From: Rhizaria sp. SCN 62-66
Taxonomy: Eukaryota
Length of the DNA: 64,000 nucleotides
Assembly: GCA_001724265.1 (NCBI GenBank)
Contig: MEDY01000022.1
Coordinates: 1-64,000, forward strand
Direction of reading: 5' to 3'
The stretch's first letter is position 1; the number at the start of each line of letters is the position of its first letter. Under the pieces are notes generated by a model. That model had not been told where the DNA came from. It ran no database searches and saw only the letters and a program-made list of their open reading frames with translations. The position numbers were made by a program, and so were the translations under genes. Positions 8,767 to 40,573 of this stretch are shown piece by piece.

Positions 8767-8832
<66 letters not shown>

Positions 8833-17638: not shown

Positions 17639-17718
17639 ATGTCTCAGCCCCCGTTGGGTTCCCGCGATGCGGCGAGCGTCACCCTCCCGGGCATCCACGC
17701 CCGCCGCTCCGCTGCCTC

Positions 17719-17753
<35 letters not shown>

Positions 17754-20700
17754 CGGGCTTCTCGCACTCCGCGCGTCTCCCCTCTGGCTCCCCGGCCGCG
17801 CGCGCCCCGGCTATCGCTGCCCCGCTGACCGCGCGCCTCGCCCCCGCCACCGCCTCAGCTGCCACCTACAGCGCCAGCAGCGGGCCCACGCATCCACCCG
17901 GCGCGTTCGGCTCCACCTACGACACGGGCGCCGCGCCGTTCCGCGCCATGCCGCGGTCTGCGCCGGAGAACTTCACGCCGCTGGCGCCGCTGCCGGCCGG
18001 CTACACGGGCAATCAGCCGCCCGCGTCGCGCGTCTCGCTGGTTGACGGCCAGGCCGCGCACAGCAACAACCAGGCCCAGATCGAGCACGCGCGCCAGCAG
18101 AGGCACGCCGCCACCGCGGGGCCCGGCCAGGCGCCGCTGCCGGCCTCCCCGCGCCGGCCCTACGCGCTCGCGCCGGGGCCCAACACGCTCGGCCCCGCGG
18201 GCGCTGTGCCGCCCTCGCTCGCAGCCACGGTGAACCAGAGCTCTAGTTCGAGCTCTAGCTCCGGCTCCGGCGCTGGTCTCAGCGCGAATGACGCCGCTGC
18301 GGTCGCGGCGCGCTCCCCGCACGCGTTGGCCGCGGCGTCTCGCATCGGGATTATTCCGCCCGCCGCGCCGGGCTCGGCCAAGGCGCTGCCGCTGGTCTTC
18401 TTCTTGCTGGGCGGCCCCGGCGCAGGCACTAACTCGGCCGCGCGCGCGCTCGCGCAGCAGTACGCGCTCACGCCGGTGTCCGCGCTGGACTTGCTGCTGG
18501 CCGAGCGCGCCACGGGCTCCCCCGCTGGCGCGCTTATCGCGCGTGCGCTGAACCTGCCGCTGGTGCGCAAGGCTGGCGACCACGGCAACAGCAACAGCAA
18601 TGGCGGCGATACCGGCTCTGATGCCTCGGGCAGCGGCAGCGGTAGAGCCGACGGCGCGACGACGGCGACGCTCAGCGGTGCCGACGGCGCCGCCGCGTCC
18701 TATGGCGACGGCAGCGGCGGCAGCGGCAGCACCAGCGGCGTGCGCGTGACCGAGGCGGCCGCCGTCGCGCCGTGCGTCACCACAGGGCTGGTGCCAGCCG
18801 ACATCACGCTCTGTCTGCTGCAGCGCGTGCTGGATCACCACGTCTCGCACGGGCGCACCGCGTTCCTTGTCACGGGCTTCCCGCTCTCGGTGGGCGACTG
18901 GGAGGCCTGGGCGCTCGCCACCAAGGGCTACTGCAACGTCGGCGGCGTCATCTACCTCGACATGCCGCTGCAGGCGCAGTTCGACCGCCTGCGCGCCGCG
19001 CTCGACGACGCGCGCCAGGAGTGCGCAATCACGGTTCCGAAAAAGTCCTCCGCCACGCAGCAGCAGCCCCCTGCGATCACCAACGCGTCCTCGTCCTCGT
19101 CCGCGGTCCCGGGGGCTGGTTCCCTGTCCTCCGCCGCCGCCGCTGAGGCCGCCGCGGGCGCCGCCATCTCGAGCGGCGCCTCAGTGCGCGGCGGCGGTGC
19201 GGGCTGGGGCTCTACGCCGGCCCCCGCGACGGTCTACGGCACGCGCCGCCGCCCAGGCTCGCCCTCGCTCTCCGGCGACGCCGGCGCGGGCGCGGGCGCC
19301 GCGGGGGCCCGGTCCACGGCGCTGACGGTGCCTGCTGACGTCAACGCCAACGCGGCCGAGCACGCGCGGCTGCGGTCGCGCAAAGTCTTCGTGCTGGACG
19401 AGGACGCCGTCGACGCTGCGCTGCGCCTGCACGCCACGCACGGGCTGCGGCTGCGCGACGTCTTCATCGCCGCGGGCCGCCTCAAGCGCGTTGACGCCAC
19501 GCTGTCCTCCGCGGACATGGCTGAGGCGTTCCGCGCCCACCTGGCGCCGTTCCCGTCGCTGGCGCTGCCCTTCGCGGGGGCCGGCGGCGCGCGCGGGGCC
19601 GCAGGCGGCGGCGCGCTGCTGCCCTGGCAGGGCGCTGCCAAGCCCGTGCTTGTGCTCCTCACGGGCGGACCCGGCGCGGGCGTCACGACCGTGGCGCGTC
19701 GCATCATGGCTAAGTACCGCTTCGTCGACGTCGACGTTGCGGCGCTGGTGCGGGAGCATACCGCGGCCACCGCCAACACCGCTCGTGGCCCTGGCGCCGG
19801 CGGCAACAACAACAACTCCAAGGACGGCTTGACCGCGCGCAGCAGCAGCAAAGGCAATTCCGGTGCTAACGACAAGGCCGAGAAGGACAAGACCTCTCGC
19901 TTTGGCAAGTCTCTTCCTGCCGAGGTCGTTGTTTCGCTGTTGCAGTCCTTCATCGAGGAGGAGCTCGCGCGCCGCAGCCACGCACAGCACTTCCTCCTCC
20001 GCGGTTTCCCCCAGAACCTCGCCAGTCTGGACGTGTTCGAGGCCGCCCTGGGCGACAAGGTCGACATCAAGCTCGTCATCTTCCTCGACTGCCCCGAGGC
20101 CACGCGCAAGCGCCGGCTGATGGCCGCCGCGGCCGAGCGCGCGCACACGCAGTCGCAGCTCCAGGCACAGTCGCAGGCGAGTCTGACGGCGCAGGGCTCC
20201 ACGGGCGCGCTCGGCGCGACGCGGCGCAGCTTCCACCACAGCAACAGCGCGGCGTCGGTCTCGCCCGCCGTGCTGGAGCACCGCGCGCTGGCTCAGGCCG
20301 AGGCCAAGGTGTCGGCCAAGTGCCAGCGCTTCCTGCTGGCGACGATGCCGCTGATCGAGGAGATGGAGGCGCGCGGCGTCGTCCAGTCCGTCAGCGCGTC
20401 GCCCGCCGAGAAGGACGTGTGGCGCGACGTCGACCGCCTCCTGCTAGCGCGCTTCCCGCACATGCGCAAGTTTGCCTTCGCCATCCCCGCCGCGCTCGCG
20501 CCCAGCAAGCTGCACTACGTGCCCGTCAACCCCGGCACTGCGTCTGCCGCGGCCGCGTCGGCCGATAAGCACTCCGGCGTCGTCGTCGCCTCTTCGCCCA
20601 CCGCCTCTGGCTTTGCGAGTGCTGACCCGAGCGCGGCGGCGGGCGCGGGCACTGAGATGGTTGTCTACAACTCTCCGTCTAACGCCAGCGCTAATGGTGT

Positions 20701-23700
20701 CAGTTCTAGTAGTAGTGGCGGCGATTCGGCGGCGGCGCAGTCGATGCAGCGCGCCGTCGTGGTCTTCATGCTTGGTGGCCCCGGCTCCGGCCGCCGCCAA
20801 ATTTGCGCGCGCCTCTCCCGCGACTTTTCCTTCCAGTGCATCATTGCGCACGATTTGTTGACCGCCGCCGCACGCAAGGGCCCGCCGGCGCAGCGCGAGC
20901 TGCTGGCGCGGTGCCTCGAGCGGGGCACGCCGCCACCCGCCGAGGTCACGGCGAGCCTGCTGCGCGCCGAGGTAGTTGCGCACCTGGGCGAGGGCCGGCG
21001 CTTCTTCCTCATCATCGGCACGCCGGCCTCGCAGGACGACCTCGATTGCTGGCAACAGGAGCTCTCGTCCTTCGCGGACGTGTCCCACGCGGTCTACCTC
21101 TCCTGCCCTGTGCACGTGCGCATTCGCCGCGAGCTGCACCGCCTGCGCGGCCGCGGTGAGCTGGCCGCCATCCAGCATCAGCAGCAGCAGCAGCGCGCGG
21201 CGGCCGCGGCGGCGCGGTCGGCGACGCTGTCCCCCGCCTCGCGCCATAGTAAGCAGGCCTCCTGGGCCCCCACGCCCACCAACGCTAACGCCGCTAACCA
21301 GAGCGGCGCGAGCTACAGCGGCGCCGAGCCCGGCCAGGGCGTTTTGACTAACACGGCCCCTGCGGGCGCGCTGTACGACGCCCACAGCCACAGCACCGGC
21401 GACGAGGACGGCGTCGTGGACGAGGAGGCCGCGCGCGCGCTGCACGCGCAGAACGCCTTCTTCACCGACTACACGCTGCCGATGATCGAGTCGGTGCTTG
21501 CGCACGAGCCTGGCGCGCTGCAGCCCGGCATGTTTGTCGGCACGGCGGCCCGTCTCCCGCCCGCCGCCTCCCACCGCGACGCCGCCACGGGCCGGCCGCT
21601 GGGTTTCGGGCTGGTCGAAGTGCCCACGCACCCGATCAGCGAGGAGGAGTCGTACGCCGCTGTGAAGGCCTCGTTCAAGCACCTCTTGGCGCTGTCGCAC
21701 GCGTACCGCGAGCAACACGAACTCTTCATGCAGCCGGAGCGCCCCGCCGTCGTGTTCCTCACCGGCCCGCCCGGCGCCGGCCGCGGCACCGTTGCCGCCG
21801 ACATCCTACGCCAGTTCGCGCTCACGCTCATCAGCGTCCGCGACCTGCTCGACGCGGCAGCCAACAGCACAGGCGCCGACGACCACTTGATCCAGTACCT
21901 CCAGTCCGCGAACAAGGAAGTGCCCGCTGATCTGGTGGTGAAGCAGCTGCTGCGCGCGATTGACCGCGCGGTTAAGACGGATAAGAAGCGATTTTTCCTC
22001 ATCACGGGTTTCCCGCGCCTCGCGGCGGACTGGGCTGCGTGGCGGCAGCTGGCAGAGCCATTGGTGGACGTGCGCGCCGTGGTGGCGCTGGCGTGCCCGC
22101 CCTCGGTCTGCGAGCAACGGCTCATCCAGAAGCACCTCCGCATCCACGCCTCGTTCGCACCCGAAGACGCCAGCGCGAGCGCTGCCAACGACGCGAGCGC
22201 GAGCGCGAATGGTGACTCGGCGAGTGCGGGCAGCAATGCTGGCAGCAGCACTGGCGGGATGACTCTGTCGGCGCTGCGCCAGGACATCGTGCAGTCGACC
22301 GCGCAGCTGCAGATGGCGATCCAGCCGATGATGACGCATTGCGCCGAGCTGGACACCGCCGCGCGCCTGCAGGCACAGGGCCAGCCGCAGTCGAAGCCGC
22401 AGGCAGTCGCCGCGGGCAGCAGTAGCACGACGGCGCTGGTGCCGTTTGCGGCGCCCCGCGCGCCCGCGTCTGCCGTCCCCGGCGCGGCCTCGCTGCCGGG
22501 CGCGCCACGCTGGCCCATCGTGCGCAGCCTCGACACGAACCGCTCCCCCGCCGAGGTCTGCGAGGACGCTGGCGCGCTGCTCGGCGACCTGTACCCGCTG
22601 CGGCACGAGGCGCTGCTCTCGCGCGCGCTCGCCCTCCGTGCTCCGCCGCTCAACCCGACGATCCTGCGCCGCATGGAGGAGATCCGCCTCCGCGAGGCCG
22701 CCGCCGCCGCTGCTGCCGCCGAGGCCGACGCCGCCGCGACGGCTGCGTCCGCCGCTGCCGCTGCCGCCGCTGCGTCGGCGTCCGGCGAGGCGTCCCCGGC
22801 CGCGCACCCGCAGTCTGCGGCCAACAGCGCGTCGCAGCCGTCGCCGCTGTCGGCACAGCTGACGCCGCTGTCGCCATCGTCGTCCGTGGTCGCCGACGCC
22901 GTGATTCTGGCCGCCGCGCCTGGCAGCGGCGCCGAGTTCGTGGCGCGCATCGCGAGCCAGCAGTACGACCTGCCGTGGGTGTGCGTCACGACGCTGGTGC
23001 AGCAGTTCGCCGAGTCCGACTACGTGCCCGAGGGCGGCGGCGCGCAGACGCTTACCTCCGCCGGCGCGGCGCCGTCCTCGGTCGCCGCCGCGGGCGCCGG
23101 CAACGACGTCGCCGCGGTCGCTGGGCTCAGCTCATTGCAGAACCAGACGCGCGAGGCCGTGCGTCTCGCGCTGCGCAACGGCTACGCGCCGGACCCGCTC
23201 ACGGTGCTCTCGCTGCTGCGCAGCCGCGTGCGCTACCTGGCCGAGCAGCGCGGCGCGCGCCGCGTCGTCATCACGGGGCTGCCGCTGTCCGTGGCGTCCG
23301 CGCTTGCGGCCGCCGCGCCCACGCTTGACAGCCTCGACGCTCTCGACCCCAACAGCAACGCTAGCGCGACCGCGAACAACAGCCACATCGCAAGCAAGAA
23401 CCCCAGCGATAAAAACGGCGACGGGAGCGAGCTGCCGCCCAGCGCAGTGGCGACGTGGTCGCTGTGGGAGCGCGAGCTCGGCATTGCGGGCGTGCGCCTG
23501 CGCGGCGTGATCGCGCTCGACGTGCCGCTGCCGACGCTGCGCCGCGCCATCGAGCACCGCGAGAACCTCGCCCGCGGCATCGGCGCGAACGGGCACGTGA
23601 ACAACGCGCGCGGTGGCGTCGTTGACGGCGCGGCCATTTCGCGCTCGCGCGACGTGGCTGAGGCCGTGCGCGCCGAGATCATGATGCTGCGCCGGTCGAT

Positions 23701-26700
23701 CCTGCCGCAGATCATCGCGCTGCCCGCCGCGCTGGCGTCGCAGCTGCCCGAGGCGTCGTCCAGCGCGGGCTTCCACTTCGCGCGCGTCGTCTCTGGCTCG
23801 CCCTGCGGCGCGGCGCAGCTGCACGGCGTGCTAGACGCGCTCCAGGACACCTTCCGCAGCGACATCGACGCCGACCCGGCGCTCTTCTACCGCACCGACG
23901 CGCCCGCGCTGCCGGCGCGCCCGGCGCCGCGGCAGACGGAGCTGGACGAGTCCCGCGGCCGCATTGGCTTGCTCACGGTCATTCCGCGCGAGGCATACCC
24001 GCCGCAGCCGCGCAACAGCACGGCCAACGCCGCGAACGGTGCGGCGAGCACCAAGAGCGCCTCGCGCGCGCTCACCGTCTCTGCCGCGCAACAACAGCAA
24101 CAGCAGGACGGCAGCGAAGGACCTGAGCTGTCTCCGCTGCACCTGCTCGCGGGCTCCGGCTCGTCCCTCGCGTCGTCGTCGCTGCTGCCGCTGGCGTTCC
24201 CGCACGACCCGTCCTCGGCGACGCCCTCGTCGCTGCTCTCGGCCGCGGACCGCGACGCCGGGCTGCCGCTCGTGCGCGTGCTGCTGCTCGCCGGCGGGCC
24301 GGGCTCGGGCCGCGGCACTCTCGGCCGCGCGCTGGAGAAGAGCTACGACATGCTCTACATCGACGTCGAGGAGCTGCTGCGCCAGAACTGCCTCAACGGC
24401 ACCTCGGCGCAGTCGGCCGTGATCGCCCCGCACCTCGCGTCAGGCGTGATTGTGCCCTCGGAGGTCGCTGCGCACGTCGCGCTCGCCGCCGTGCAGGCCG
24501 CGCGCCGGCAGCGTTTCTTCCACGTCGTCCTGCGCGGCTTCCCTGAAGAAGTCGCCGCTCTGCAGACGTGGGAGGTCACGCTCGCGCCCGTGTCGCGCAT
24601 CGTCGCCGTGCTCTACCTCGACGCCGACCCTGCCGTCCGCACGCAGCGCGCGCTCGCGCACTGGCGCGCAGTCTCGGGCCAGTACGACCCATCGGCCGCG
24701 GCGTCGCGCGCTGCGACGGGACTGCCGTCGGGCTTCGTGCCGCCGACCCCTGGCGACGCGCGCTGGCGCGGATATCCCTGCTCCGAGGCGGAGCTCATGA
24801 ACCGCATCGCGCAGTTCGACTCGCACACGCTGCCGCTGCTCGCCGAGCTCGCGCGCCGCGGGCTGGTCGTCAAGCTCGCCGCGGGCGCGCCGCCGGAGCG
24901 CGTGGCGGCCGACGCTGAGGCCGCGCTGCTGCGGCTTAACTGCCGCAAGTCGCTCGACGACGCCGTCCGCGCCGCCGGACTCGTGGCCCAGGACCTGCGC
25001 TCGCCGCTGCCCTTCCTCTGCGTCTTTGTCGTCGGCCCCCCAGGCGCCGGCAAGACGACGGTGGCGGCGCAGCTGGCCGCGCTGTACGGCGTCGAGCACG
25101 TACATGTGCCGACGGTGCTGCGGCGCGAGGCTGCGTCGCGCAGCCCGTTCGGCCGCGTCATCGCGCGCTGCGAGACCGAGGGCGCGCCCGTGCCCGCGCC
25201 GCTGCTCGTCGACGTCCTGCGCACGTACATCACCGACCGCCTGCTTGGCATGGGCGAGGACTACCGCGCCTTCGCCACGCAATACCTGCTCTCTCAGGGC
25301 AGCTCGGGTAACGAAGCGGCTGTTGCGCGCGCGCGCGAGGCCGCGCTGGTGCGGCTGACGTCGCCAGTGTTCCTGGTCGACGGCGCGCAGATGGAGGCCG
25401 CGACGTTCGACGCGCTGCAGCTCATGCTCGGCCGCTCGGGCTCCGATCCCGTCATGCTGCACGTCTCCGCAACCATGTCCAAGTGCGCCGACAATCTCAC
25501 CGCGCGCGCCCGCGTGCCGCCCGCCGCGGTCCGCGCCCGGCTGGCGTCCTTCTCGCTCACGGGCTTCACCGCGCTGTCCCGCGCGCTGGCCGCGGCGGCG
25601 TCGTCGTCCTGCGGTGGCGCCGTTGCGCACGCGCACATCCGCGACGACGACGACGCCGACGCCGCCGTGCTGCTGCGCGCGCGCCCGGCCTTCGAGTCGC
25701 TGCTGGCGCGCATGATGGTGATGCACCCGCGCTACATTGCCGCCGTCGTCGCGCACAACATGGCCCGCGCGCCCGGCGTGGACCTGGGCGCCGTGGCCAC
25801 CGCGGCCGCGTCACTGGCGCCGCTGGCGCTCGACGACCCCGCCGTGGCACGCGCGGCCGCCGCCTCCCCCGCTGCCGTGGCTGCGGGCGAGGAAACGGCG
25901 CGGTTGGCCACCGAGGCCGCCGTCATTATGCAGCGCCGCGCCGTCGTCGACGCCGAGCGGCACACGGTCGAGCAACAGATCCGCGACCTGGAGACGGCAA
26001 TCGCGCGCCTGCAGCCCGGCCAGAGCCTCTCGGCGCAGCACTTCCCGCCCGGTAGCGTCGGCGACGTCCCCAGCGCGGTCGCCAGCAACAAGGGCGCGCT
26101 CGTCCCCGGCACTGGTGGCGCCGGCTCGAGCGCGAACAGCTACAGTAGCGCGAGCGCGGGCAGTGCTGGCGACGCGGACTCGAGCGTGCCGACGCTGCGC
26201 TTCCTGCCGCTGTTCGTGGTCGGCGCGCCGTGCGCGGGCAAGTCGCACGCGTGCGCGGCCATCGCTCTGGCGACCCACGCCGTGCACCTCGACGTCCCGG
26301 CGCTGCTCGCGCTCGAGGCGCGCGACGCGTCCTCCGCACTGGGCGCCGTCGTGCGCGACTTCGTGCGCGCAGCGAGCCCCGTGCCGCCGGCCGCCGTGAC
26401 CGACATCCTGCTCGCGCACGTGCAGCGTTACGCGCAACACGGGCAGACCACGTTCCTCATCGAAGGCTTTCCGGCCTCGCTCGACGAGTGGAGCCATTGG
26501 TGCACTGCGCTTGGCCTCCCGCCCACACCCGCGCCCGCCGCCGTCGCACGCGCGCGCGCCACCAACGGCGCGTCCGCGGCTGCCGCGTTCGGTGACGCGT
26601 TCGGCGCCGGCGAGGTGCCGCCGTCGTCGCTCGCGGGCTACTTCATCTCGGTCGACGCGCCCTACAATGTCGCCGCGGAGCGCTTCGCGGCCCGGTACCG

Positions 26701-29700
26701 CGCAGAGATCTCGCAGCACGCGGCCGCGGCGCCCGCGTCGACGCGCCGCAGCAGCGGCAACGGCAGCATGGCGCTCGTGCCCGCCGGTGCCCACGGCCAC
26801 GGCCACGGCCACGGGCACATGGGCGACGAGGCCGCGGACGACCCGGTTCACTCTGTCGCCGCGCGTCTGGCTCCCGGCTCACAGTTTCCGCTCGTCCCGG
26901 CCTCAGGCTCGTCATCGGCCAACGCGGCCGCCGCGGCGTCCGTCTCCGCGGCCTCGCTCCGTGGCTTCGAGGACACTTACTGGGCTCGCACTGAGGTACG
27001 ATGACATCAAACACTGATTCTACATTTTTTCATGCCATGTCTTTAATTGCATCGTCTCCACCAATCCTCGCTCTTACATATTTTGTGTTTCTCATTTTGT
27101 TTCGCTAATCACTTCAGGCTTTGCAAGAGGTTCTCGCTGCGGCGCGCTTCCTCTGGGGTCAGTCCTCCGGCGTGCGCGCCCTCGTCCACAACGTCGACGC
27201 GCGCGGCTCGCCCATGTCGGTTCAGGCCGCGCTGCTCACGGTCATCACGCGCGTCCTCCACTCGCTCGACATCCCCCTCGGTATCGCTGCCGCGGCCAAC
27301 GGCAGCGCCAACGCTAGCAGCCGTGGCAACGTGGCGAACGCAGGCGCGTCGTCGACCGCGATGACTCCCACTGGCGGCGCTGGAGCGAGCGCTACTGGCC
27401 GTCCCCCGCGTCCTCTGCGCGCGCGCACGTCGTGGGTGTTCCCAATCTTCCTCCTGGGCGGCCCCGGCGCGGGTAAGATGACGCTCGCGGGCCGTCTCGC
27501 GCGCGACCTCGGGCTCACTCACATCAACACGCCCGCGCTGCTTGAGGCCGAGGCACGCGCGCGCTCGCGCTACTCGCCCAAGATCATCGAGTGCGCGCGC
27601 GTGGGCGCCCCCGTGCCCGGCGAGATCGCCGCCGCCGTGGTGTGCCGCGCCGTCGCGCAGGCCGTCGAGGCCGGCAACAACGTCTTTGTCGTCAACGGCT
27701 TCCCGCAGTGCACCGACTCGTGGACCGCGTGGACGCAGTGGCTCGGCGGCTATCCCTCGCATGCCGCCACTATTGTGCTCGATTGTCCCAAGGACACCCG
27801 GCTGCGGCGCCTGATCCGCCAGGAGGAGCAGCACCAGGCGGCGTCTAAGCAGCGCCTGGGCCGGCCCGTGTCGATGCCCGAGTCTTCGCACCTGTCCACG
27901 CGCCTCGGCTTTGGCCGCGAGGCCGGATTGGCCTTTACACGCGGCGCGTCGATGGGCATCGAGAAGGCCGGCTGGGTGTACGACACGATCACGCAGCACG
28001 CCGAGCTGGCGCTGCTCCACGCACCCACCGCGGGGCCCGCGCTCGTGGTCAACGCGCTCGAGGCGCCCGACGCCGTCGCCGCCAAGACCACGCTGTGGGT
28101 TGCCGCGCTCATGTGTCGCCTCCAGGTCGCTCTGAAGCCCGCTCTCGCGTTCGCCGAGGCGCTCGAGGACGACGCTGCGGCTGGCACTGGCGTCGTCGGC
28201 GCGCTCACGGGCGCTGCGGGCGCTGGCGGCGCTGCGAGCACGCTCGCGGGCGCGATCGCGGCCAGCAGCAGCGCGCTACGCGTGGATCCCGGCGTGCTGA
28301 TGGGCGCCATCGCGACCCTTGCGGGCGGCGCCGGTGCCGTGCTGCGCCCGCAGCTGAGCCCGCTGGGCCCCACGCGCGCCCCGCTGCCCGCGGCCGTGCT
28401 GTCGGCATCGACCTTCGCGCCGCTGATGCTGTCGTCTGCGGTCTCGCTGCAGTCGTCCTCGGCCATGGGCTCCACAGCCTCTGTCCTCGCGCGGCTGACG
28501 TTCAACCCGCAGTCGCAGCCCGCGACCGCGGTGGCAGCGTCGCTCGCGGCGCCTCTGATCGCCGCGGCCGCGACCAACCCCGCCGCGGCGGCCGTGCTCG
28601 CGCGCACTTTCCCGCTGCTGCTATCATCCATCGCGGCCGCCACGGGCGGCAGCAGCAGCATGCTGTCCGCCGCCGCCGCCGCCTCGGCCGCTGGTGCTCG
28701 CAAGACCTCCGCTTTGACCTCTGCGTCCTCCGCTGTCGGTGCTAGCGCTGTCACACAGAGTTCCGCCGCCGCCGCTGCCGCTGCCGCCGCCGCCGCAGCC
28801 TCCGCGGCCGCCGCGGCCGACCCGTTCTACCTGGCCGCGGGCACGCTCTCCGCGTTCGTGCCCGCGGTGCTGGGCGCGGGCCCCACGCACGCCATCACGC
28901 CGCGCGGGCTGCACATCGTCCACATCCTCGGCGCGCCCGGCTCCGGCACCACAGAGCTCGCGCGCGCGGTCTGCGGCCGCTACGCCATGGGCTACGTCGA
29001 CACCGACGCACTGCTTGACGAGCTCTGGGCCAAGGACGCCGAGCGCGCCGCCGCCGCGAAGCTCGGCCTCCGCGGCAACAACGGCAACAGCGACGCTGCT
29101 GAGGGCAGCGAGCCGGCCTTCCCGGCGGGGGCCGCGCTGCACGGCGTTATCGGCGGCGCCTTCCCGGACGTATTGGCCGCTCGCGTGTGGGCGCTCGTGT
29201 GCGCGCTGCACCGCGAGGGCCACTCGGCCGTGCTGGTGCCGGGCTTCCCCGCCTCGCAGACGCAGCTGCTGCGGTGGACGGCGCTCACGGCGGGCCGCGC
29301 CACGCTCGCGGGCGCCGTGTTGCTCGACGTGCCCGCGCAGGCGTGCTCCGACGCGCTGCTCGCGCGCGGCATGGCGCCCACGCGCGCGCTCGCGATGCTG
29401 ACAGACTACAACACCAATACGCTCCCCGTGCTGCAAGACCTGGCCTCGGGCGCTGTCTCCGCGGCCACTTTTGCCCCCGGGAGCGCGCGCGCCGCCGCGG
29501 CCGCCGCCGCTGCCGCCGCCGCCGCGGTCGCTGCAGACGTCTCACATGCCATCGCCGACGTCGCCGCGATCCTCGGTGCACCCGCCGCGGCGTCGGCCGC
29601 CTCGGCCGCCGGCCTTGCGTCGGCCGTGATGCCCGTCACGGCCTCGGCGTTGTCGCCCACGGCCTTCATGCTCCCGCTCTCGCTGCCCGTTTCGGCCGCG

Positions 29701-32700
29701 ACGGCGCCCGCGCAGGCCGTGTCGGCGCTGGCGCCCGCGCTGGCGGCCTACAGCGACCTGGCTGTGCTGCCGACGCCGCCCGCGGGCGTGGAACTCGTGT
29801 ACCCCGACTCCGCGTCGGCCGCGCTTGTCGTCGCCGCCCCAGTCAAGGAGCCGCTCGTCGTGCTCGTCGTCGGCGGGCCCGGCGCGGGCAAGCGCGCCGC
29901 AGTGTCAGCGCTCATCCGCAGCGACGCTGAGCTCTCCGCCGCCGGCGCGTCCCCCGCCAGCGCGGTCCTCGGCGGTCCCAACGGCGGCGCGGGCCCGCGG
30001 TTCGTGGCGGTGTTTGCGGCGTCGCTCGTCTCCCTGGAGGCGAGCAAGGACACGGACACGGGCGCGGTGGTGCGCCACTGCCTTGAGCAGGACGCGCCCG
30101 TGCCGCCGCGCATCGTCGCCTCAGTCGTGCGCCGCTTTATTTGGGAGCAGCACGCGCTGCTCACCACCTCGCCCGACGCTGTTGCGCTCGCCGCCGCCGC
30201 CGCGCCCGCGCTCGCGGCCTCCGGCGCTGACGCCGACGACGCGACGTCGCCCGACGCCATTGCGCGCGCGCTGCCGCCGACCGTGTTCCTCGTCGTCGGC
30301 TTCCCCTCAGACCCGGCCGCGCTGGCGCAGTGGCTGGCCTCGGTGCGCGACGTCCCGCCCTCGGTCTGCGCCGGCTCATCTGCCTCGTCCGTGTCCGCCT
30401 CGGCCGCGGCTCCCGCGTTCGCCGTGTGGGTTGAGAGCCCGGACCGCGCGCGCATGCGCCGGCTGCTGCAGCGCGGCGAGTCGGAGCGCTCCATCCTCGC
30501 GCGCTGCGAGCGCTGGGCGCTCTCCCGCGGGCCGCTGCTCGAGGCCCTCCGCAGCCTCGGCGGCGCCGTCGCCGTCGTTGACGCCGCGCGCATCGCGCGC
30601 TCGGTGCTGCGCCGCGCGGGCGCCGCCCCCGACGCGCGCGCGGGCGAGGTGGTGACGCCCGAGCAGTTGGTGCCACACCTGCGCACCGCCGTCCAGGGCC
30701 TTGTCGTCGCCGCCACCGCGCAGCGCAGGCTCTCGACCGCGCTCGCCCGCTCCGCCGCGCTGCTTGCGCACCATGCCGCCGCCGGCAACTCCAAGAACAA
30801 TTCCATCGCGCGCTCGCGTGCGCCGCTGCCCGCGCTGCCCGCCCCTGCCGGCGTGGCCGCTGCGCCGGCACAGTCGCAGGCGCAGTGGCAGATGCTGGTG
30901 CTGCTGACGCCGCACCAGGCCGTCGCGGACGCGGTGGCGTTGCGCGTGTGCGCAGGCTACAAGGCGGCGTACCTCTCGCGCTTCGCCGTGCTCTCCAGCG
31001 TCGGCTCGCCGCTCGCGCTCGCGTCCCCCGCGCGCCCCTCTGCGGACCCGCACGGCGACGCCACGGCCGTCGCGTCGCTCTTCCTGCGCTCGATGCAGGA
31101 GCGCGCGCAGGACGGCGGCGTCACGCACTTCGTCGCGCACGGCTTCCCTGCCAACGCCGAGGAGCTCGCCGCGCTGACCCGCGCCGCCGGCGCGCGTGTT
31201 GCCATCGTCGCCGTCGAGATCATCGACAGCGAGAGCGCCGCCGCCGCGGCTGCCGCCGACGAGGCCGCGCTGCGCTCGCCCACCACGGCGGCCGCGGCCG
31301 CTGCGAACAAGCGCGGCAGCGGCGGCAACTTCTCTACGGCCTCGCCCCGCGTCCCGAATACCGCCACCGCGAGCGCTGCGAACGCCGCGCCGCTGCCCGA
31401 CGTTGCCGGCACCGCCGCCGCCGCCGCGCGCGCACTGGCCGCGGACGGCTCCGTGCGCTTTTTCGCGCTGTCTGCACCGCGCTCGTCACCGCGCCCCTTC
31501 GCGCCCGCCGTCGCGCCCCCGAGCTCCGCCACCGCCGCCCAGTCGCACTCGCTGAGCGGGGCCAGCGAGCGCGACCAGGCTGACATGCAGCAGGCGCTGC
31601 TCGCGCCCGTGAACCCGCTGCCCGTGGCGCGCTGGGCGTTGGCGCTGGACGAGATCTTCGCCGAGATGCGCCGCGTGGTGCAGTTGCCGTACCTCTGGGC
31701 CGCGGCCTCGGTCGAGCCCGCCTCGTCCTCGGCTGTCGTCGCCCAGTCCGCGCTGCAGAACATCGGCGCCGTCATCGCCTACAGCAACAACGCCAACAAC
31801 AACGTCACTGCGAGCGCTGTGGTCGCGGCTGTGGACGCGTCAGTGATGCTGCTGTTTGCGCTGGGCGACCCGTCGCTGTCGGCGATGTCGCACGAGCTCA
31901 CGCGGCTCCGCGTGCAGCTGGGCTTTACGCTGCTCGACCCCACGCCCGTGCGCCTTGTGCTGCGCGTGCTCTACACGCTGCGCCGCATCCTCCGCGCGCG
32001 CAACCAGCGCCTCGTCGCAGTCTCGGGTGCCCTCGCCGCTGGCCTCGCAAAAGGCCGCCGCGGCTCCACCACGCTCGCCACCGCGACTGCCGCCACTGCG
32101 GCGACGACCAACACCAACGGCGTCTCCGCTGCGCCCACGCCCGCTGCCGCTGCAGCAGTGGCCGCATCCGAGCTGTGCCCGGCGCTGGCCGCCGCCGCGG
32201 TGGCCGACGCGCTCTCGGCCAGCAGCGCGCTGACCGCCGGCGCCGGCGCGCTGTCGTGGGCCGCCACGGCGCGCTTCCTGCTCACCATCTCCGGACTGGG
32301 CCACCTGCACGACGTGCGCGACGCGCTCATTACCGCCGAGACCGAGGCCGCCGTGCACCACAGCAACAGCGCCGCGGCGGCCAACGCGGTGACTGCGGGT
32401 GCCGGCGACAGCGACGCCGCCGCAGAGGCCGCCGCGCTCGTCGCGTGGCTGCACTGGGAGCTCCAGTCCGTCGCCGCTGCCGCCGCGCCCATGGTCACCA
32501 CCACCGCGGCCAACGGCAAGCACCGCGCTGCGGCAGTGAGCGTCACATCCCGCGGCGCGCACGTCGCGGTCACGGGCTTCCCCGCTTCGCTGGCCGAGTG
32601 GACCGCCCTCGCGCGCTCGCCGCTCGCGCCCACACCCGCGGCGCCTGCGTTCGCGCTCGCCTTCGCGGGCTCGCAAGCGTTGCTGCAGGCGCAGGCCGTC

Positions 32701-35700
32701 GACAAGGGCATCCTCGCGCTCCCGGCCTCCGCGCTCGCCTCAGCGTCGTCCTTCACGGCGGCTGCGGCCCCCGTGGCGTCCCCCGCGGCCGCCGCGCTGG
32801 CGCCCGCCGCCACTGAGTCCGCGGCCTTCGCGGGGGCCTGGGCGCCGCACGCCTCCCCCGCGGGCGCCGAGGCCGCCGACGCACAGAAGCGTCTGGTGAC
32901 TGCGTTACCGGCGTTGTGCACGCTCACGGTCGACCAGGCGGTGTGCCGCACGCCGGTGCAGGTGGCCACCGCGGTCGACTCATGGCTGCACCAGCTCGAG
33001 GCCGCCAGCGCCGCCGGGCTGCTCACCGTCACCGCGCCCAGCGGCGCGGCGGTCAACAACGATCGCAGCAACGAGAGCGAGATCGAGAGCAAGGATGCCT
33101 CGCTGTCGCGTCAGAACAGCGGCGCCTACGGCAGCAGCGGCGACGAAGGCAACGTGTTGATCCACGTCGGCCACGCCACGCTCGCGCTCGCGCCCGAGGA
33201 CGTCGCCACAGGCTCGCTGCTGCAGACGCTGTCCCGCGCCAAGTCCAGATCGGGCTCCCGCCGTGCGCTCACCACCGCGGCAGCGTCCGACAGCGCTGCC
33301 GCGGCGCTCACCGCGGTCGGCGGCGCGCGCGGCGAGAGCCTCAGTCTGCTGAGCTTCCGCTTGGGCTACACCGCGCTGCCGCCCGTCTCGGCCGCGGCGC
33401 CGCGCGCGTGGCTGCTCTCGGCGTGGCGGCCACAGGCGATGCCGATCGCGCGCGCGGTGTTCCTCGTCGCGCCACCAGGGTTCCCGCTCTTCCCGCTGTG
33501 CAACCATCTGACGACGGCCTACGACTTCAAGTGGCTCGACCTGCCCTCGCTTGTCGAGCGCGCCGTCGCCGAGGCCCCCGCGTCGCCCGTTGCCGGTATT
33601 GTGCGCCGCACCGTGGTGAAGCATGGCATGCTGCTCACGGACATGGCCAGCGGCGCCGCCGGGTCCGCCGCGTCAGCCGCGCGCGCCTACTCGGCCTCGG
33701 TCGCCGCTGGGTCCACCGTGGTGCCCGTCTCGGCCACGGCTATTGCGGCCGTCATCTCGAAGCTGCCGCCCGCGCTGCTCGTGCACGTGCTCCAGGACGC
33801 GATGCAGCGCGAGATCGCGCTCCCGCTCGCCGCCGCGGAAGACACCAACATGTCCACCGTCGCCGCGCACAGTCACCGCAACGCCAACGGCGGTGTGATG
33901 ACGGCGACGTCCGCGGCCGGCCTTAAGTCCGCACGCGCGCTGTCTGCGGGCCGCGCGTCGTTTATCGTCTCCGGCTTCCCCGCCGACAGCGACGCGTGGA
34001 CCGTCTGGCGCGCCTCTGCCGCCGCGCGCGCGTGTCCGCAGTCGCTGCTGGTGCTGCTGGACCAGGACCCGCTGGTGGCGGCGCTGTCGCCGAGCCCCGC
34101 CGCGCTGCAGGCCGCCCGCGAGGTGGCCGAGCGCGCCGCGCAGGAAGAGCGCGAGCGTCGTATGACCGACGCCATCGACCTCCAGCGGCGCTGCCGCGCG
34201 CGCGCGACGGCCGCCGTGGCGCCCGCGCTGGAGCGCGCCGCCGCCGTGGCGTGGCTGCGCGACACGGCTGCCGCCGAGCGCGCGCGCGCCGCCGCGCTGC
34301 GCACCGCGGCCGACGCCGTCGTTGCGGCCGCCGCGGAGGAGGCTGCGCGGCTGGCGCCCGGCGAGACGCAGGAGCGCGGCGAGCGCATGGCGCGCATCGC
34401 GGCCGCGCAGGACACGCGGCTGTGCACGTTTGCGCTCTCCTGCACCTTCCTGCCCGCCATCCTTGCCGAGGCCGACTACAACAGCGGCAACGGCCAGGGC
34501 AGCGCTGGCGGTGACGGCAGCGGTGGCAACGCCGTGCTGCGCCTGCACCGGCGGGTGTCCGGCGCGGCGGCCGCGGGCGTGAGCGCGCCCCTGCAGCAGT
34601 CCTCGGCCGTGGCGCCCGGCCGACACGCCGAGTTCGCGGCGCACATCGTGCTGCGGCTGCCGATGGCGCTGCCACGGTCCGCGCTCTCGGCTGCACAGGA
34701 GCAGGCTAAGCTCCAGCAGCAGCAGCAGCAGCAACAGCAGTTGCAGCAGGTTGACGCTGACGGCGAGCTGATTGAGCACGTCTCCGGCAACACCGGCAAC
34801 GCGAACGCCGTCGTGCCCGAGGCCGAGGACGACTCGGCAGCCATCCGCGCCGCCGCCAATGCATACCTCAGCCGCGAGCTCGCCACCCAGTACGTCTTCA
34901 CAATCTCTCGCCCCAGCTCGAGCAATGGCAGCGGCGACGGCGGCGCGTTTTCGCTTGACGACGTCGTCGCCGTGGCCGAGGTTACCGCGGCCGAGCTCGT
35001 CGCCGCCGCCCGCTCCGGCTCTCTTGTGGCCCGCCTGACGCCCGCGGCGGGCGTCGCGCTGTCGCGCTCGGCGCAGCTCGTCGTGCGCACCGTCTCCGTC
35101 GCGCCTACGCCCTTCGACGCCGCGGCGGCCGAGCCCGAGTCGGCGCTGCTCTCCGCCGCCGCCGCGGCCGCCGCCGAGGCCCACCGCGCCGAGGCCGCCC
35201 GGTGCGACGCGCGAGCACAGGAGACCGACGCGGAGCTCGCGCTGGTGCTGTCCGGCCGCGCCCCCGCGCCCGAGGTGCCGCCCGCGGCCGCCGCGACGTC
35301 GCCGGCCGCCGCGCTGGCGCTGGACGCCGTGGCCGCGGTGCGCCGCCGCGCCGCCGACGCCGCGGCGGCCATGGCGACGGCGGATGCTGGCGTGCGCGCG
35401 CTCGAGGCCGAGGCCGAGGCCGCCGCGGCGGGCCCCGCGACGCCGGCGCCGCTGGTGCGCGACAAGGTTCTCGCGCAGCTGTCGCCGCAGGACCGCGCGC
35501 AAGTGCTGGTGTTCGAGGAGGCGACGCTGCCGCTGTGCCGCTCGCTCGCCGCCGAGGACCAGTGCGCGGTCGTGCCCGTGGCGGCCGACGCCGAGCGCGA
35601 AACGGTGTACGAGCACCTCGTCGCCGCCATGCACCAGCGGCTGCCGGACATCGAGGTGCTGTCGATGGCCGAGAAGGAGGCGCTGCCCGCCGCGCTCGAC

Positions 35701-36489
35701 GCCGCGGAAGCCGCCACGGCCGGCACGCACGCCAACAGCCTCGGCAGCGGCACGTCCACGGACGCCAATGCCGCCGCCGCCGCTGCTGCTGCGGGCGCTC
35801 GCAAGCCGAAGCCGCCGCTGCGTCTGTCATTCCTGCTGGGTCCCGCGGGCAGTGGCAAGCGGTCCCTGGTCAAGAGCGTGCTGCAGAAGTACTCCAGCAG
35901 CGTCGTGCACCTGGATGCCGCGAAGCTGGTCCAGGAGGAGCGCGAGAGCGCCCTCGACCTCGGCGCGGGTTCCCCAGGCGCCGGATCCGCGGGCGCGGAG
36001 GAGCACGTGGACCAGGCCGCCGTGCGCATCATCCTGCGGCAGGCGGCGGCGATCGCGGCCGCGGCGGGGGGAAACAGCACGAGCAGCTTCGTCGTGACCG
36101 GCTTCCCGCAGACGGTCAGCGGGTGGGGCTTCCTGCTCCAGGAGCCCACGGTTTCGCGCGCCAACGCGGCCGGCCGCAGCAAGGAGGCCGCCGGCGGCGG
36201 GCTCCGCGGGCCGCGCTTTGAGGTGGCCTCGGTGCTGCTGCTCGCATGCCCGCAGAACACGTGCCTGCAGCGCATGCTGAAGCAGGGCGTGCCGCTCAAG
36301 GCGGCGCAGGCGGCAGGCAAGGAGTACGAGGCCAACCAGAAGCACGTCGTGGCGCGGCTGATGCAAGAGGAGCCCATCCTGTCCACGACCGTGTCCGCCA
36401 ACGGGCCGCTCGAGACGGTTGCCGGCGAGGTCGCCGCGCATCTGGCCAAGGTCCTCGTGCTCGCGCCCGACAACGGCAACAACGCGTAA
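17639..36489 (+). CDS. Giant protein (~6242 aa) with ~15 tandem adenylate/UMP-CMP-kinase-like P-loop domains. Exons 17639-26995 and 27118-36489
   Basis: The 3121-aa and 3122-aa ORFs are joined by a phase-0 122-nt GT-AG intron. The recurring unit is hydrophobic strand-GGPG(A/S)G(K/R/T)...LL...hhhhxGFP...hhhLD(C/V)P, separated by Ala/Ser-rich linkers. TAA stop. Confidence 0.88.
26996..27117 (+). other. Spliceosomal intron (122 nt)
   Basis: GAG|GTACGA...GCTAATCACTTCAG|GCT; AT-rich, with a CTAAT branch-point-like motif just upstream of the AG; phase 0 on both sides. Confidence 0.9.
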
Positions 36490-37213: not shown

Positions 37214-38334
37214 ATGGCCTCAAATCCTCGGGGGTCATTCGCAAACACTAATGATCGAGGAGGTCCCAATGCCTGGGGTTCCCAAAGGTTCGTTCCCTTG
37301 CCCTGCTAGCCCAAGCTCTCAGCGATCTCAACAATAACCAACTGAATTCACACGTCCTGTACCTTGCTCATATCTATGTCATTTTTTACTTCTGTTCCAG
37401 GCCCGTGCACAACAGTAACCTGAAGCCCCACAACCCTGCTTCCCCGACCGGCCTCGTGGCCATGCCGCCTGGCGCCTACCCCGTGCACGCCCACGCGCCC
37501 CCGCACGGCTCCCCGCACGGTCACCAGCCACCCCACGCGCACCCGTATCTGCACCACGGCGTCCCGCACGTCATGCGCTACCCGGGGGCCGGATACCTCC
37601 CCGCCTCGTCACTTTCACCCGCCGCGTTCCCCAACCAGCACCACCCGCAACAGCAGCAGCTCAACAGCAACAACCCTGCCGCCGCCGCCGCCGCCGCGGG
37701 CCTCGCCGCCGCAGCCATGTACGCGCCCCCTCCCGGCGGCCTCGCGTCGCGCCCCCCCGGCCCCGGCGGTCTGCCCGGCCCCGCTGGCCCTGCCGGCCTC
37801 GCCGCCGTGCCCGCCTCCAGCGCCAGCAGCGCGCTCGCCGGGGGCCCCGTTGCTGTGACCCCGACGCGCCCCACCGCGGGCGGTGCCGGCGGCGGCGGCG
37901 GGCCGCGCAAGCCTGCGGGGTACTTCAACGCGGCGACGCCCAACCGCGAGGAAATGGCCGCCGCGGCCGCGGGCGTGTCGCCCCAGGTCCCCGGCGGTGG
38001 CGGCAGCGCCAGCGTCGGAATGGGCTCTCTCCCAGGCTTCTCCCAGCAGCAGCAGCAGCAGACATTTGGTGACGGCTACGGCGCGGGCGCGGGTGCCGGC
38101 CAGCCGCAGCAGCAGCAAGGCCTGACAATCCCGTCGGCTGCATTCGCCTACTACGGCCAGCAACAGCAGCCGTCTCAGCAGCAACCTCAGCAGCAGCAGC
38201 AGGGCGCCAATGCCGGCGCTGGCGCTGGTGCAGGCCAACAGGGCTTTTACCCCGCCTACCAATACCAGTCTCTGCCTCAGCAGCAGCAACAGCAACAGAT
38301 GGCGTTTCTGATGCAACAGCAACAGCAACAACAA

Positions 38335-38376
<42 letters not shown>

Positions 38377-40518
38377 GGCGGCAATGTCAACGCCAACAGA
38401 GGGCTGTTCTCAGTCCCTCCCGCCGCCACCACCGGCGCTGCTACCGCGACTGCCGGCGCCGGCTCTGGCTCTGGCGCTGGCTCCGGCTCTGGCTCAAGTG
38501 GCAGCGGCAGCGGCAGCGGCAGCGGCAGCGGCAACAAGTTGGGCACCAAGCTATCGATCGCGGCGGCCTCCTTTGTGCCCCGCTCGGTCGCTGCCACCGC
38601 TGCGCCCGCGGTTGTCGCCAGCAACAACAGCGCGGGCACTCTGAACGCTGGCCTCGGCTACGGCGGCTACCAGCAGCAGCAGCACGGGTACGGGACTGCC
38701 CACGGTCACTCGCCCGCCCACGGTCACTTCCAGCTGGGCGCCATGCCGGCCTACTTCCAGGGCCCCGGCGCCGGCGGCGTCCCCGCCCCCGGCAGTCAGC
38801 CGCAGCCGGCCTCGGCTGCGGCTACAGGCGGCGGCGCCGGCGGCGTCGGTGTCGGCGTCGGCGGCCAGGGGGGCTCGGGCTCCTCCGCGGGCTCTGCAGT
38901 GGCCGCAGGCAGTGGTAACACCGCGGGTACAGGCGCGGGCGCTGGCGCGGGCGCGGGCGGCGCGGCGTCGCTGCTGGCTGACGTCGACTACTCGTCGGTC
39001 GGCGCCGGCATGCGCAACCTCTACGCCCACTCGCACGCCCACGGCCACGGTCACGGTGTGAGCGCCGTCTCTGTTGGCGGCCCCGCTCCCGGCGTCACCG
39101 CCTCCTCTGCCGCCGCCGCGGCCGGCGGCGCCGGCGCCCGTGCGGCCGCCGACTCGGCCGCCGCGGCGGCTACGGCGCTCGCGCTGAGCAGCCTCGCCGC
39201 GGGGGGCATCCCCTCGGAGGCCTTCGACGTGCCGGGGCTGCCCTCGCTTGACTCCAGCACTATCACTGGGACCACCACCACCAACAACAACAGCAGCGCC
39301 AGCAGCGGCAGCAGCGGCGGCGCGAGTAACACTGGCGGCGCGGGCGCTGCGGGCGCGGGCTCCGGGAGCTCCGGCGCGGGGGGCTCCGAGCTCTTCTTCG
39401 GCGGCGACTACAGCTCGATGCTCGCGAACCTGTCGCTGTCACAATTCACGCCCCCTTCGCTCACCGACAACAGCAACGCTAGCTCTGCCCACGCGACGGA
39501 GAGCACGACCAGTGCATTTGGCTCTCTCAACACCACGGCCGATGCCGCTGCTACCAGCCCGCTTGCGATGGATCTGCCCGAGCCGTTCACCGACAACTCG
39601 AGCGCCAGCGCCGCCAGTGCCGGCAGCGCCAGCAGTGCCACTGCCGACTCCGCTGCTCCGGCCGCGACCGCGAGTGTTGCCGCCACGGCGCCCTCGCCTG
39701 CTGGGACTGCCAGCGCTGACCGCTTCCCCAAGAGCGAGGCCGCCATCGCCGCCGCCAACGCCGCCGCCGCCGCGGCTGCCGCTGCTGCCGCGGGCGGTGT
39801 CCATAGTGCGGAGACGGGGGAGGACGGCCGCGGCTACTCGCTGCGCGCCGCGCAACCGCTGCGGCCCTTTGTGCCCACACACACGGCCGTGTCCGCCGTG
39901 CGGACGCCGCTGACGAGCGCGACCTTCTACCCCTCTGCGGGTGCGGTGGCCCCGGCGCCGGCGCAGCGCGCGCGCTACACGCTGACGCAGATGCTGCTGC
40001 TGCGGCACCAGCTGCTCTCGCGCCCGGGCGCGGCCGTCGCGGCGGCCCACCAGCCCGCGCGCACGGCGGTCCGGGCCTCGCTGCCGGACCTGCTGCAGGC
40101 CGCGGTGCCCGAGGCGCTGACGCCCGCCTCGGCCGCGCACGCGCGCCGCGCCGCCGCCGTTGCCGCGCTCGAGGCCGAGTGGCAGGCGCAGGTCCAAGCT
40201 GAGCTGGCCAAGCACGGCGGTGTGCTCCCCACAGGCCACCCCTTCCTGGCGGCCTCCGCGCTCGCGGCGGACGACGCGAGCAGCGCCGAGGCCGCTGCGG
40301 GCGCGGGCGTGGACGGGGGTGTGACACTGGGCATCATGGGCCGCGCCAGCGCTAACGCAGACGCGTCCAGCTCCAGCTCCAGCTCCAGCTCGAGCTCTGC
40401 GACGACGACTGCGGCGTCGACCGCGTCAGCAAGTCCCACGGCCGCCAGTGCCGGAGCCGGGGCCGGCGGCGACACGTTGCCCCCGCAGCGGAGCATGTTC
40501 GGCACCGCGCTCCAACAG

Positions 40519-40573
<55 letters not shown>

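Follow-up and report, generated by a model that had tools for sequence, protein, structure and literature searches.

A probable two-exon gene for a tandem array of 15 degenerate domains of the nucleoside monophosphate kinase type in Rhizaria sp. SCN 62-66

Introduction

In this study, a stretch of 64,000 nucleotides (nt) from Rhizaria sp. SCN 62-66 (positions 1 to 64,000 of contig MEDY01000022.1 in assembly GCA_001724265.1; hereafter the window) was found to carry, at 17639..36489 on the + strand from ATG to stop, what is probably a single gene of two exons with a product of 6,242 amino acids (aa), referred to here as the giant protein. The preferred reading, to which a probability of about 0.6 is given, is that this gene encodes an array of 15 pseudo-enzyme domains with the nucleoside monophosphate (NMP) kinase fold, denoted d1 to d15, that functions as a non-catalytic scaffold, most likely in the axoneme. 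An earlier note on this DNA, made from the letters alone, had claimed one large gene of ~6240 aa, split in the track of open reading frames (ORFs), and ~15 tandem domains resembling NMP kinases. The gene and its size are borne out by the in-frame joining of the two ORFs over a 122-nt GT-AG segment, which yields a predicted product of 6,242 aa. The domain count is likewise upheld: a profile derived from a distant relative, the predicted protein P0003, matches all 15 units and has no matches in control sequences. A complete set of catalytic residues was found in none of the units.

Kinase-like sequence of the 15 units

The Pfam ADK family (PF00406, gathering score 26.8 bits) matches the first ORF (ORF1) with 263 bits over nine stretches and the second (ORF2) with 65 bits over one stretch. 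For a scan unit by unit, the protein was cut into 16 segments around the 15 motif positions of the earlier note, each of which lies within ~20 nt of a unit found by the tools. A HMMER search with Pfam ADK and AAA_17, which had been proposed as a check, was successful in part: eight of the 15 units (d1-d4 and d6-d9, 31.1-60.7 bits) exceed the ADK gathering score on their own, whereas d15 reaches 17.8 bits and d5 and d10-d14 are unmatched.

The whole array was recovered with a profile for which the 13 units of P0003 were the sole source, and which gave 19 stretches at i-Evalue ≤1e-3 in the spliced protein, covering 15/15 units. These matches sit at consistent profile coordinates, the weakest being those of d5 (4.6e-4), d12 (5.1e-4) and d13 (1.9e-4). 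The same profile gave zero matches at ≤1e-2 against the reversed sequence and 30 shuffles made within 50-residue windows. A self-trained iterated profile also found all of the units; as it is circular after the first round, it was not used as evidence. A profile restricted to the C-terminal part of the domain was significant in d2 and d6 only, and the completeness of the other units was judged by reading the sequence.

The units share 16-30% identity with one another. A variant of the FLIDGFPR strand, which the earlier note had placed behind every P-loop position, was confirmed as a GFP-type strand downstream in 14 of the 15 units; it fails in d7, which has DGAQM instead. The best solved relatives of d4 are UMP/CMP kinases, namely the Dictyostelium enzyme (1qf9, E 3e-17) followed by 7e9v and 1tev. 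For d13, regarded as the weakest unit, an AlphaFold2 (AF2) model was made from an input alignment that included canonical kinases, with a predicted local distance difference test score (pLDDT) of 55.1 and a predicted template modelling score (pTM) of 0.41. A Foldseek search with this low-confidence model gave nothing at E≤1e-3; the top entry was 7e9v (E 0.2), and UMP-CMP kinase, AK5 and AK1 were ranked first. Using VIA-align, 150-170 residues of the model could be placed on chains of adenylate kinases (AKs) and UMP-CMP kinases with Z values of 9-10, an alignment that is supportive of the fold and is not independent of the canonical kinases in the input.

Catalytic residues

The key columns were read from alignments with two canonical UMP-CMP kinases, P0126 and P0149, in which all of the key residues are present. 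The P-loop lysine is kept in five of the 15 units (d7, d8, d9, d11 and d15); in seven units R, T, V or A stands in its place, and d12-d14 have lost the whole loop. The arginine of the NMP site, at the end of the D-L-L-R motif, is kept in three units (d2, d6 and d7), and the arginine of the GFPR motif in one (d4). These three residues occur together in 0/15 units. Two of them are held by d7, yet this is the unit that has lost the GFP strand, and d4, the sole unit with the GFPR arginine, has an arginine in place of the P-loop lysine. Wide retention is limited to the first arginine of the R-L-L element. Furthermore, low-complexity sequence takes the place of the LID, and d14 has an insert of ~370 aa there; the Arg/Asp columns of the LID are mostly gaps or non-Arg, in a region where the alignment is unreliable.

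Since no unit has the full catalytic residue set, the units seem to be pseudo-kinases and the array not to be a phosphotransfer enzyme. The P-loop motifs of the earlier note hold in that a G-x-x-G-x-G loop is present in 11 units, but just five keep its lysine. Of the two functions suggested in that note, a phosphotransfer role is unlikely with a catalytic set complete in no domain, whereas a nucleotide-binding scaffold fits the data.

Gene structure

Both ORFs lie on the + strand, at 17639-27004 (3121 aa) and 27121-36489 (3122 aa). Joined in phase 0 across the GT..AG segment 26996-27117 (122 nt), they amount to 6,242 codons and a stop codon without any internal stop, an open frame that spans 18.7 kb, in which the GC content at the three codon positions is 0.736/0.590/0.905 (that at the third position, GC3, being 0.905). 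Exon 1 (17639..26995, 3,119 codons, GC 0.735) would contain an N-terminal low-complexity region, d1-d7 and most of d8. It is followed by the predicted phase-0 intron (26996..27117, GTACGA...TTCAG, GC 0.369) and by exon 2 (27118..36489, 3,123 codons plus the stop, GC 0.752), with the presumed end of d8 and then d9-d15. There are seven possible in-frame GT-AG pairs near the junction, and the compositional trough is matched only by 26996/27117. In addition, ORF2 has its first in-frame ATG at 27214, and the 32 codons that separate it from the acceptor have a GC3 of 0.84, which is of the coding type. Together, these features indicate that this is probably one two-exon gene with predicted splicing at 26996/27117.

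Short AT-rich GT-AG introns near the 5' end are also found in two other genes of the window: SF3B1 on the - strand (~57634-57510, after just 19 coding bases) and BOP1 on the + strand (~47921-48121, donor GTACGT). A GTACG donor is common to the BOP1 intron and the predicted intron of the giant gene. The C-terminal elements of d8 appear to run on across the intron, as judged by eye and from a weak phmmer match of residues 3130-3211 to d4 (0.0053). Contigs of a polyA metatranscriptome (run X5) align without gaps to parts of both exons, in at least eight pieces between 20614 and 36383. Scans of metagenome contigs for an uninterrupted junction revealed no relative of the exon-2 start with d9, nor of P0003.

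A 13-unit relative and other multi-domain adenylate kinases

A profile of 11 unit cores, four of them from exon 2, was compared with 1.84 billion representative proteins and gave 20,852 matches at E≤1e-3. The number of units per protein was counted in the 149 best non-self matches: one protein has 13 units (P0003) and one has seven (P0004), whereas five units are found in 26 proteins, four in 24, three in 32, two in 60 and a single unit in five. Among these matches, P0003 would thus be the one database counterpart of the giant protein. The exon-2 ORF itself was missing from the top matches, though four of its domains sat in the query profile; the library is therefore incomplete for eukaryotic genes. 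Word-limited searches at similar length with ORF1 (region 1030-1600) and with P0003, in which 8000 candidates were scored each, returned only the queries, which does not prove that further relatives are absent.

P0003 is a predicted protein of 2,813 aa from a public run assembly, for which no published description was found, with 13 back-to-back UMP-CMP-kinase-like units of ~210 aa each. It has no catalytically complete unit. The two proteins are alike in their degenerate units, in the lysine kept in units 7 and 8 of each, in a V-x-LPGI motif at the extreme N-terminus and in partial collinearity. They are unlike in that P0003 is compact, without low-complexity linkers or an insert of the d14 type, has two units fewer and is less than half as long. 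In Smith-Waterman comparisons of the giant protein with the P0003 units, the row maximum falls on the diagonal in four of 13 rows (permutation P 0.008). A FastTree phylogeny of 23 units from both proteins, from which d7 and d11-d14 were dropped as too short, is interleaved, with six of nine cherries being cross-species: d3-D3 (support 0.91), d2-D1 (0.84), d15-D9 (0.72), d5-D5 (0.71), d8-D7 (0.71) and d9-D6 (0.42). From this interleaving it follows that most of the duplications should be older than the split between the giant and P0003 lineages. The degeneracy of P0003, the partial collinearity and the interleaved phylogeny demonstrate, at the level of sequence comparison, an array that is old and maintained. 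The giant protein and P0003 were placed in a 'pseudo-AK array' family, defined by at least 13 tandem degenerate UMP-CMP-kinase-like units that pair across proteins; the definition is provisional, with two known members.

The seven-unit protein P0004 (KAJ3202892.1, annotated as hypothetical) is from the chytrid Entophlyctis luteolus and has six intact P-loop motifs and six GFPR motifs. Another chytrid hypothetical protein, P0005 (KAJ3284513.1 from Rhizoclosmatium), has five units by profile and six Pfam ADK stretches, which are apparently intact. Both P0004 and P0005 exceed the multi-domain AKs that were found described in the literature; searches of open-access and bioRxiv text gave no description of more than four AK domains per protein or of dead AK arrays. 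The earlier statement that the architecture exceeds any known can thus be kept in so far as 15 units are far above AK8 and AK9, but not in full, with 13 units in P0003 and seven in the chytrid protein. Further long multi-AK proteins, with three to five units and mostly intact P-loops, are those of Chromera velia (2513 aa), Gefionella (3779/3876 aa), Lagenidium (2651 aa) and Thecamonas (1099 aa), as well as AK9-like proteins of fish. In the Atlas, d2-d4 have multi-ADK clusters of ~1,000 aa as neighbours, which come from ciliates wherever the taxa are known.

Two other matches were of a different kind. P0138 (237 aa) is a stand-alone UMP-CMP-kinase-like pseudo-kinase, with an arginine for the P-loop lysine and GFLQ for GFPR. 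P0143 (KAL1526249.1 of Prymnesium parvum, 2758 aa) consists of ~12 near-identical recent repeats with a weak match to the AK core and no P-loop, and looks like an independent and much younger repeat expansion.

Proposed explanation and alternatives

In the proposed explanation, the gene belongs to an uncultured, probably flagellated eukaryote of wastewater or activated sludge, and its 15 domains of the UMP-CMP/adenylate kinase fold, spaced and interrupted by low-complexity sequence rich in Ala, Ser and Pro, would serve as beads, each a protein-docking module of a non-catalytic scaffold, and the five lysine-keeping units (d7, d8, d9, d11 and d15) may bind or sense nucleotide. AK7, AK8 and AK9 are structural parts of radial spokes, and by analogy the axoneme would be the likeliest place for such a scaffold. 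An axonemal localization is the weakest step of the explanation and is itself proposed tentatively, with doubt outweighing confidence.

Several observations weigh against the scaffold reading. Nothing in the analysis places the giant protein in a flagellum, and DPY30 and RIIa anchors were not found. The catalytic residues were called from alignments of sequences just 16-30% identical, in which the LID residues are not reliably alignable, and units with an arginine for the P-loop lysine (d3, d4 and d6) could still bind nucleotide. The AF2 models are of low confidence (pLDDT 46.7 for the d14 insert and 55.1 for d13), and the orthology of the giant protein and P0003 is only moderately supported. 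With regard to the gene model, the exon joint 26995/27118 is absent among the joints listed for the metagenome and metatranscriptome contigs aligned with the window, a contig from run X4, which is of unknown kind, crosses 26910-27269 unspliced, and RNA libraries can also contain DNA; all of the aligned runs are assembled contigs, so that a missing spliced form does not argue for its absence. The continuation of d8 over the intron was not detected by the C-terminal-only profile.

The missing joint and the unspliced X4 contig also speak for an alternative in which each ORF is a gene or transcript of its own and 26996-27117 is a short spacer, not an intron, and gene callers list the 3121-aa product of ORF1 alone. 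This alternative is nevertheless improbable: GT and AG stand exactly at the ends of the spacer, which keeps phase 0 and coincides with the only GC trough, whereas the other intergenic spacers adjoining the giant gene are about 650-900 nt long; ORF2 has no ATG for its first 32 codons, in which the coding-type GC3 is already seen; ORF1 ends and ORF2 starts within the apparent domain d8; and the units of P0003 are continuous in one chain. A different objection accepts the single chain and regards it as active, namely as a multi-domain AK/UMP-CMP kinase that forms a 15-site phosphotransfer relay like the sea-urchin triple AK (Sp-AK), AK9 or the seven-domain chytrid protein. Active multi-domain AKs do exist (AK9 with 3-4 and AK8 with two catalytic domains, and Sp-AK, as far as the excerpt of PMC2680645 goes), P0004 combines seven units with six intact P-loops and six GFPR motifs, and the Walker-A lysine is kept in five units of the giant protein. 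A relay would, however, require sites of a kind that is absent here, where the P-loop lysine, NMP arginine and GFPR arginine are combined in no unit, the only GFPR arginine (d4) is accompanied by an arginine for the P-loop lysine and the LID segments are replaced by low-complexity sequence, and it is considered very improbable.

A pseudo-kinase array might also work outside the cilium, whether as a scaffold of the cytoplasm or the cytoskeleton, as a buffer for nucleotides or in the regulation of true NMP kinases. The units are closest to cytosolic enzymes of the UMP-CMP kinase/AK1 type and not to AK9, a stand-alone pseudo-kinase of like type exists (P0138), and DPY30, RIIa and other ciliary targeting or docking domains were not found with Pfam. 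Positive evidence is absent for any location, whereas the large multi-AK proteins of known location are axonemal in the literature excerpts used here, and the lineages in which other long multi-AK proteins were found (Chromera, Gefionella, Lagenidium, Thecamonas and the chytrids) are flagellated; a non-ciliary role is judged unlikely. Finally, the array might be a decaying or functionless expansion, in which runaway duplication drifts to low complexity, or an assembly artefact. Alanine accounts for 23% of the protein, ~60% of the chain falls outside recognizable domain stretches and the P-loop is lost in three units. Against this, the frame is open over its full length with its high GC3, other assemblies contain near-identical copies that differ by 1-3 aa, the region is also represented in DNA contigs of several studies, the 16-30% identity of the units marks them as old rather than recent copies, and the distant relative P0003 has a partly collinear array, so that decay or artefact is hardly credible.

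The scaffold reading thus remains the preferred one. If it is true, the NMP-kinase fold has also been taken into large-scale use as a structural module without enzymatic function, the array has persisted in two or more distant lineages, and the giant protein is among the largest pseudo-enzyme arrays seen. The units would also provide a natural series of domains that lose catalytic residues singly, which helps to separate the requirements of nucleotide binding from those of catalysis. For annotation, ORF-based gene calling hides genes such as this one. An extension of this reading, which is put forward as a long shot, would be that the giant protein and P0003 represent an old conserved class in which 13-15 dead NMP-kinase folds, some of them nucleotide-binding, are strung as beads into a rod tens of nanometres long that might dock on the axoneme or act along it as a ruler or a sensor for ATP/ADP, apart from the enzymatic AK7, AK8 and AK9.

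Domain map of the giant protein

All features of the map lie on the + strand. The N-terminal 251 aa (17639..18391) are of low complexity, with poly-Q and stretches rich in Ala, Ser and Pro, and the motif shared with P0003, V-x-L-P-G-I, stands near their start; these ~250 aa have no Pfam match at E≤10 except a 6-bit chance match. The first unit, d1 (18392..19000; P-loop GGPGAGT, GFPL), has 40.0 bits for Pfam ADK and P0003-profile values of 4.3e-7 and 2.1e-12. It is followed by d2 (19634..20455; GGPGAGV, GFPQ), in which the NMP arginine is kept and which is matched by ADK (56.0 bits), by the P0003 profile (1.5e-27) and by the C-terminal profile (1.4e-6). The third unit (20738..21178; GGPGSGR, GTPA; ADK 31.5 bits, P0003 profile 3.1e-27) is the sister of P0003 D3, and d4 (21740..22135; GPPGAGR, GFPR) has the highest ADK score of the array, 60.7 bits. 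The degenerate d5 (22898..23542; AAPGSGA, GLPL), sister of P0003 D5, is matched by the P0003 profile at 4.6e-4 and 0.016. In contrast to this unit, d6 (24272..24940; GGPGSGR, GFPE) is compact and complete, with its NMP arginine, an ADK score of 49.6 bits, a P0003-profile value of 4.5e-24 over positions 9-187 and a C-terminal-profile value of 1.5e-7.

The lysine-keeping units begin with d7 (25019..25237; GPPGAGKT, DGAQM for the GFP strand), which also keeps the NMP arginine and has 36.0 bits for ADK and 1.9e-12 for the P0003 profile. The corresponding values are 31.1 bits and 4.1e-16 for d8 (26210..26515; GAPCAGKS, GFPA) and 52.3 bits and 1.2e-28 for d9 (27430..27843; GGPGAGKM, GFPQ). The next two units are matched by the P0003 profile and not by Pfam ADK: d10 (28909..29457; GAPGSGT, GFPA) at 4.8e-16, and d11 (29845..30597; GGPGAGKR, GFPS), which keeps the lysine and has large inserts, at 6.7e-4 and 4.4e-7. 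In d12 (30892..31209, the start being the beta-1 position) and d13 (31843..32712), the latter with a long insert, the P-loop is lost and GFPA is kept.

The core of d14 (33448..34080; APPGFPL, GFPA) is matched by the P0003 profile at 6.1e-4 and 9.9e-8. At its LID position stands the insert of ~370 aa (34393..35493), which has helical or coiled stretches and a further region, no Pfam match and an AF2 single-sequence model of pLDDT 46.7 that is unusable. A probable C-terminal element of d14 follows (35494..35637), with a P0003-profile match at positions 140-185 (0.0049) and a C-terminal-profile value of 0.32 that is not significant. The language-model neighbours of the insert (34393-35505) all belong to clusters of C2-type beta-sandwiches (RPGR1_C, C2, C2-C2_1 and NT-C2), with every score below 0.9 and recognition weaker than usual; a C2-like module within the kinase fold of d14 is a weak lead. 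The last unit, d15 (35827..36468; GPAGSGKR, GFPQ), is complete and keeps the lysine; it has 17.8 bits for ADK, below the cut-off, 24.6 bits for AAA_17 and 1.1e-14 for the P0003 profile over positions 12-191. The chain ends six residues past d15. Profile-matched stretches account for ~40% of the chain; in the remainder, 26% of the residues are Ala, and Ser, Pro and Gly are abundant as well.

Host and neighbouring genes

The stretch with the giant gene is present in bioreactor, wastewater and activated-sludge runs from seven studies. The HEAT region of SF3B1 (53900-57163, - strand) is 63-65% identical alike to plants, Amorphochlora, Physarum and Acanthamoeba, and 81% identical to a metagenome protein; with just 63-65% identity to named organisms, the host lineage is therefore one without a close sequenced relative. 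A neighbouring ORF at 1255-3762 on the - strand (835 aa) has an NDK domain (148 bits), a Dpy-30 motif (21.7 bits, cut-off 22) and an ADK match (25 bits, cut-off 26.8). This mix of domains, which resembles NME5/AK7, suggests a protein of the radial-spoke type and a ciliated host.

Elsewhere in the window, the ORFs at 4405-10884 (+ strand, 2159 aa) and 50630-53077 (+ strand, 815 aa) have no Pfam match at E≤0.001. The sole Pfam match of the ORF at 37405-43560 (+ strand, 2051 aa) is MIF4G at residues 1493-1619, as in an unusually long eIF4G-like protein. The region 44001-46000 has a low GC content of 0.456, a + strand strongly skewed towards purines (GC skew 0.27, AT skew 0.27) and no large ORF, and Tandem Repeats Finder gave one trivial 22-nt repeat (45830-45871) in 43000-48500.

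Comparison with known kinases

The short NMP kinases of known structure (1qf9, 1tev, 7e9v, 1uky and 2bwj) share with the units the beta1-P-loop, the NMP-binding segment, the GFP strand and the LDCP-x-RL element. Enzymes of the UMP-CMP kinase and AK1-AK5 types are single-domain, active proteins of ~190-220 aa with all of the catalytic Lys, Arg and Asp residues, whereas the units of the giant protein lack the full set. The active multi-domain AKs (P0004 with seven units, the ciliate-type proteins of ~1,000 aa with 4-5 units and Sp-AK, cited in the excerpt of PMC2680645, with three) are similar to the giant protein in having tandem AK domains and in coming from flagellated organisms; they differ in that the P-loop and GFPR are mostly intact and that they have at most seven units.

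According to the excerpts of PMC11779644 and bioRxiv 10.1101/2025.05.19.654877, AK7, AK8 and AK9 are built into radial spokes as structural parts, and AK8, with two catalytic domains and an N-terminal RIIa anchor, is located in the necks of radial spokes 1 and 2 (RS1 and RS2). In the excerpt of PMC11779644, the RS3 head contains AK9 together with two AK7 molecules, and AK9 carries a DPY30 anchor at its C-terminus; four catalytic domains are given for it there and three in that of bioRxiv 10.1101/2025.05.19.654877. For the radial-spoke AKs in general, the number of AK domains (1, 2 or 3-4) sets the number of ATP-regenerating sites per 96-nm axonemal repeat. When scores are summed, AK9 (mammalian and Tetrahymena, ~1,900 aa; 9d2f_A and 9fqr_Xf), which is located in the RS3 head with AK7 and LRRC23, is the top Protein Data Bank match for the unit profile (126.9 bits); like the giant protein, it is large and a structural part with several AK-fold domains. 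The single units, on the other hand, are closer to UMP-CMP kinases than to AK9, and the 3-4 catalytic domains and C-terminal DPY30 that the excerpts describe for AK9 contrast with 15 units of which none is catalytically complete. Pfam searches of ORF2 (E≤1) and of the d15 segment (E≤10) gave no Dpy-30 match, and RIIa was likewise not found in the unmatched N-terminal ~250 aa at E≤10. With neither anchor and no competent site, the giant protein is, on its sequence, not an orthologue of AK9, AK8 or AK7.

AK-like modules have also been described in the central-apparatus proteins CPC1/SPEF2, FAP42 and HYDIN, which are large axonemal scaffolds in the excerpt of PMC6678824. Hydin_ADK (PF17213) gave 12.6 bits on d8 (E 0.15, cut-off 27), and ASH/MSP families are absent among those shown for either ORF (the best 25 of 39 for ORF1). 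As far as that excerpt describes them, these proteins differ from the giant protein in that just one or two of their domains are AK-like and the others are of different types. CPC1/SPEF2, FAP42 and HYDIN nevertheless offer the closest functional analogy for an AK fold used in a non-enzymatic manner, with FAP42 and CPC1 being compared by description only.

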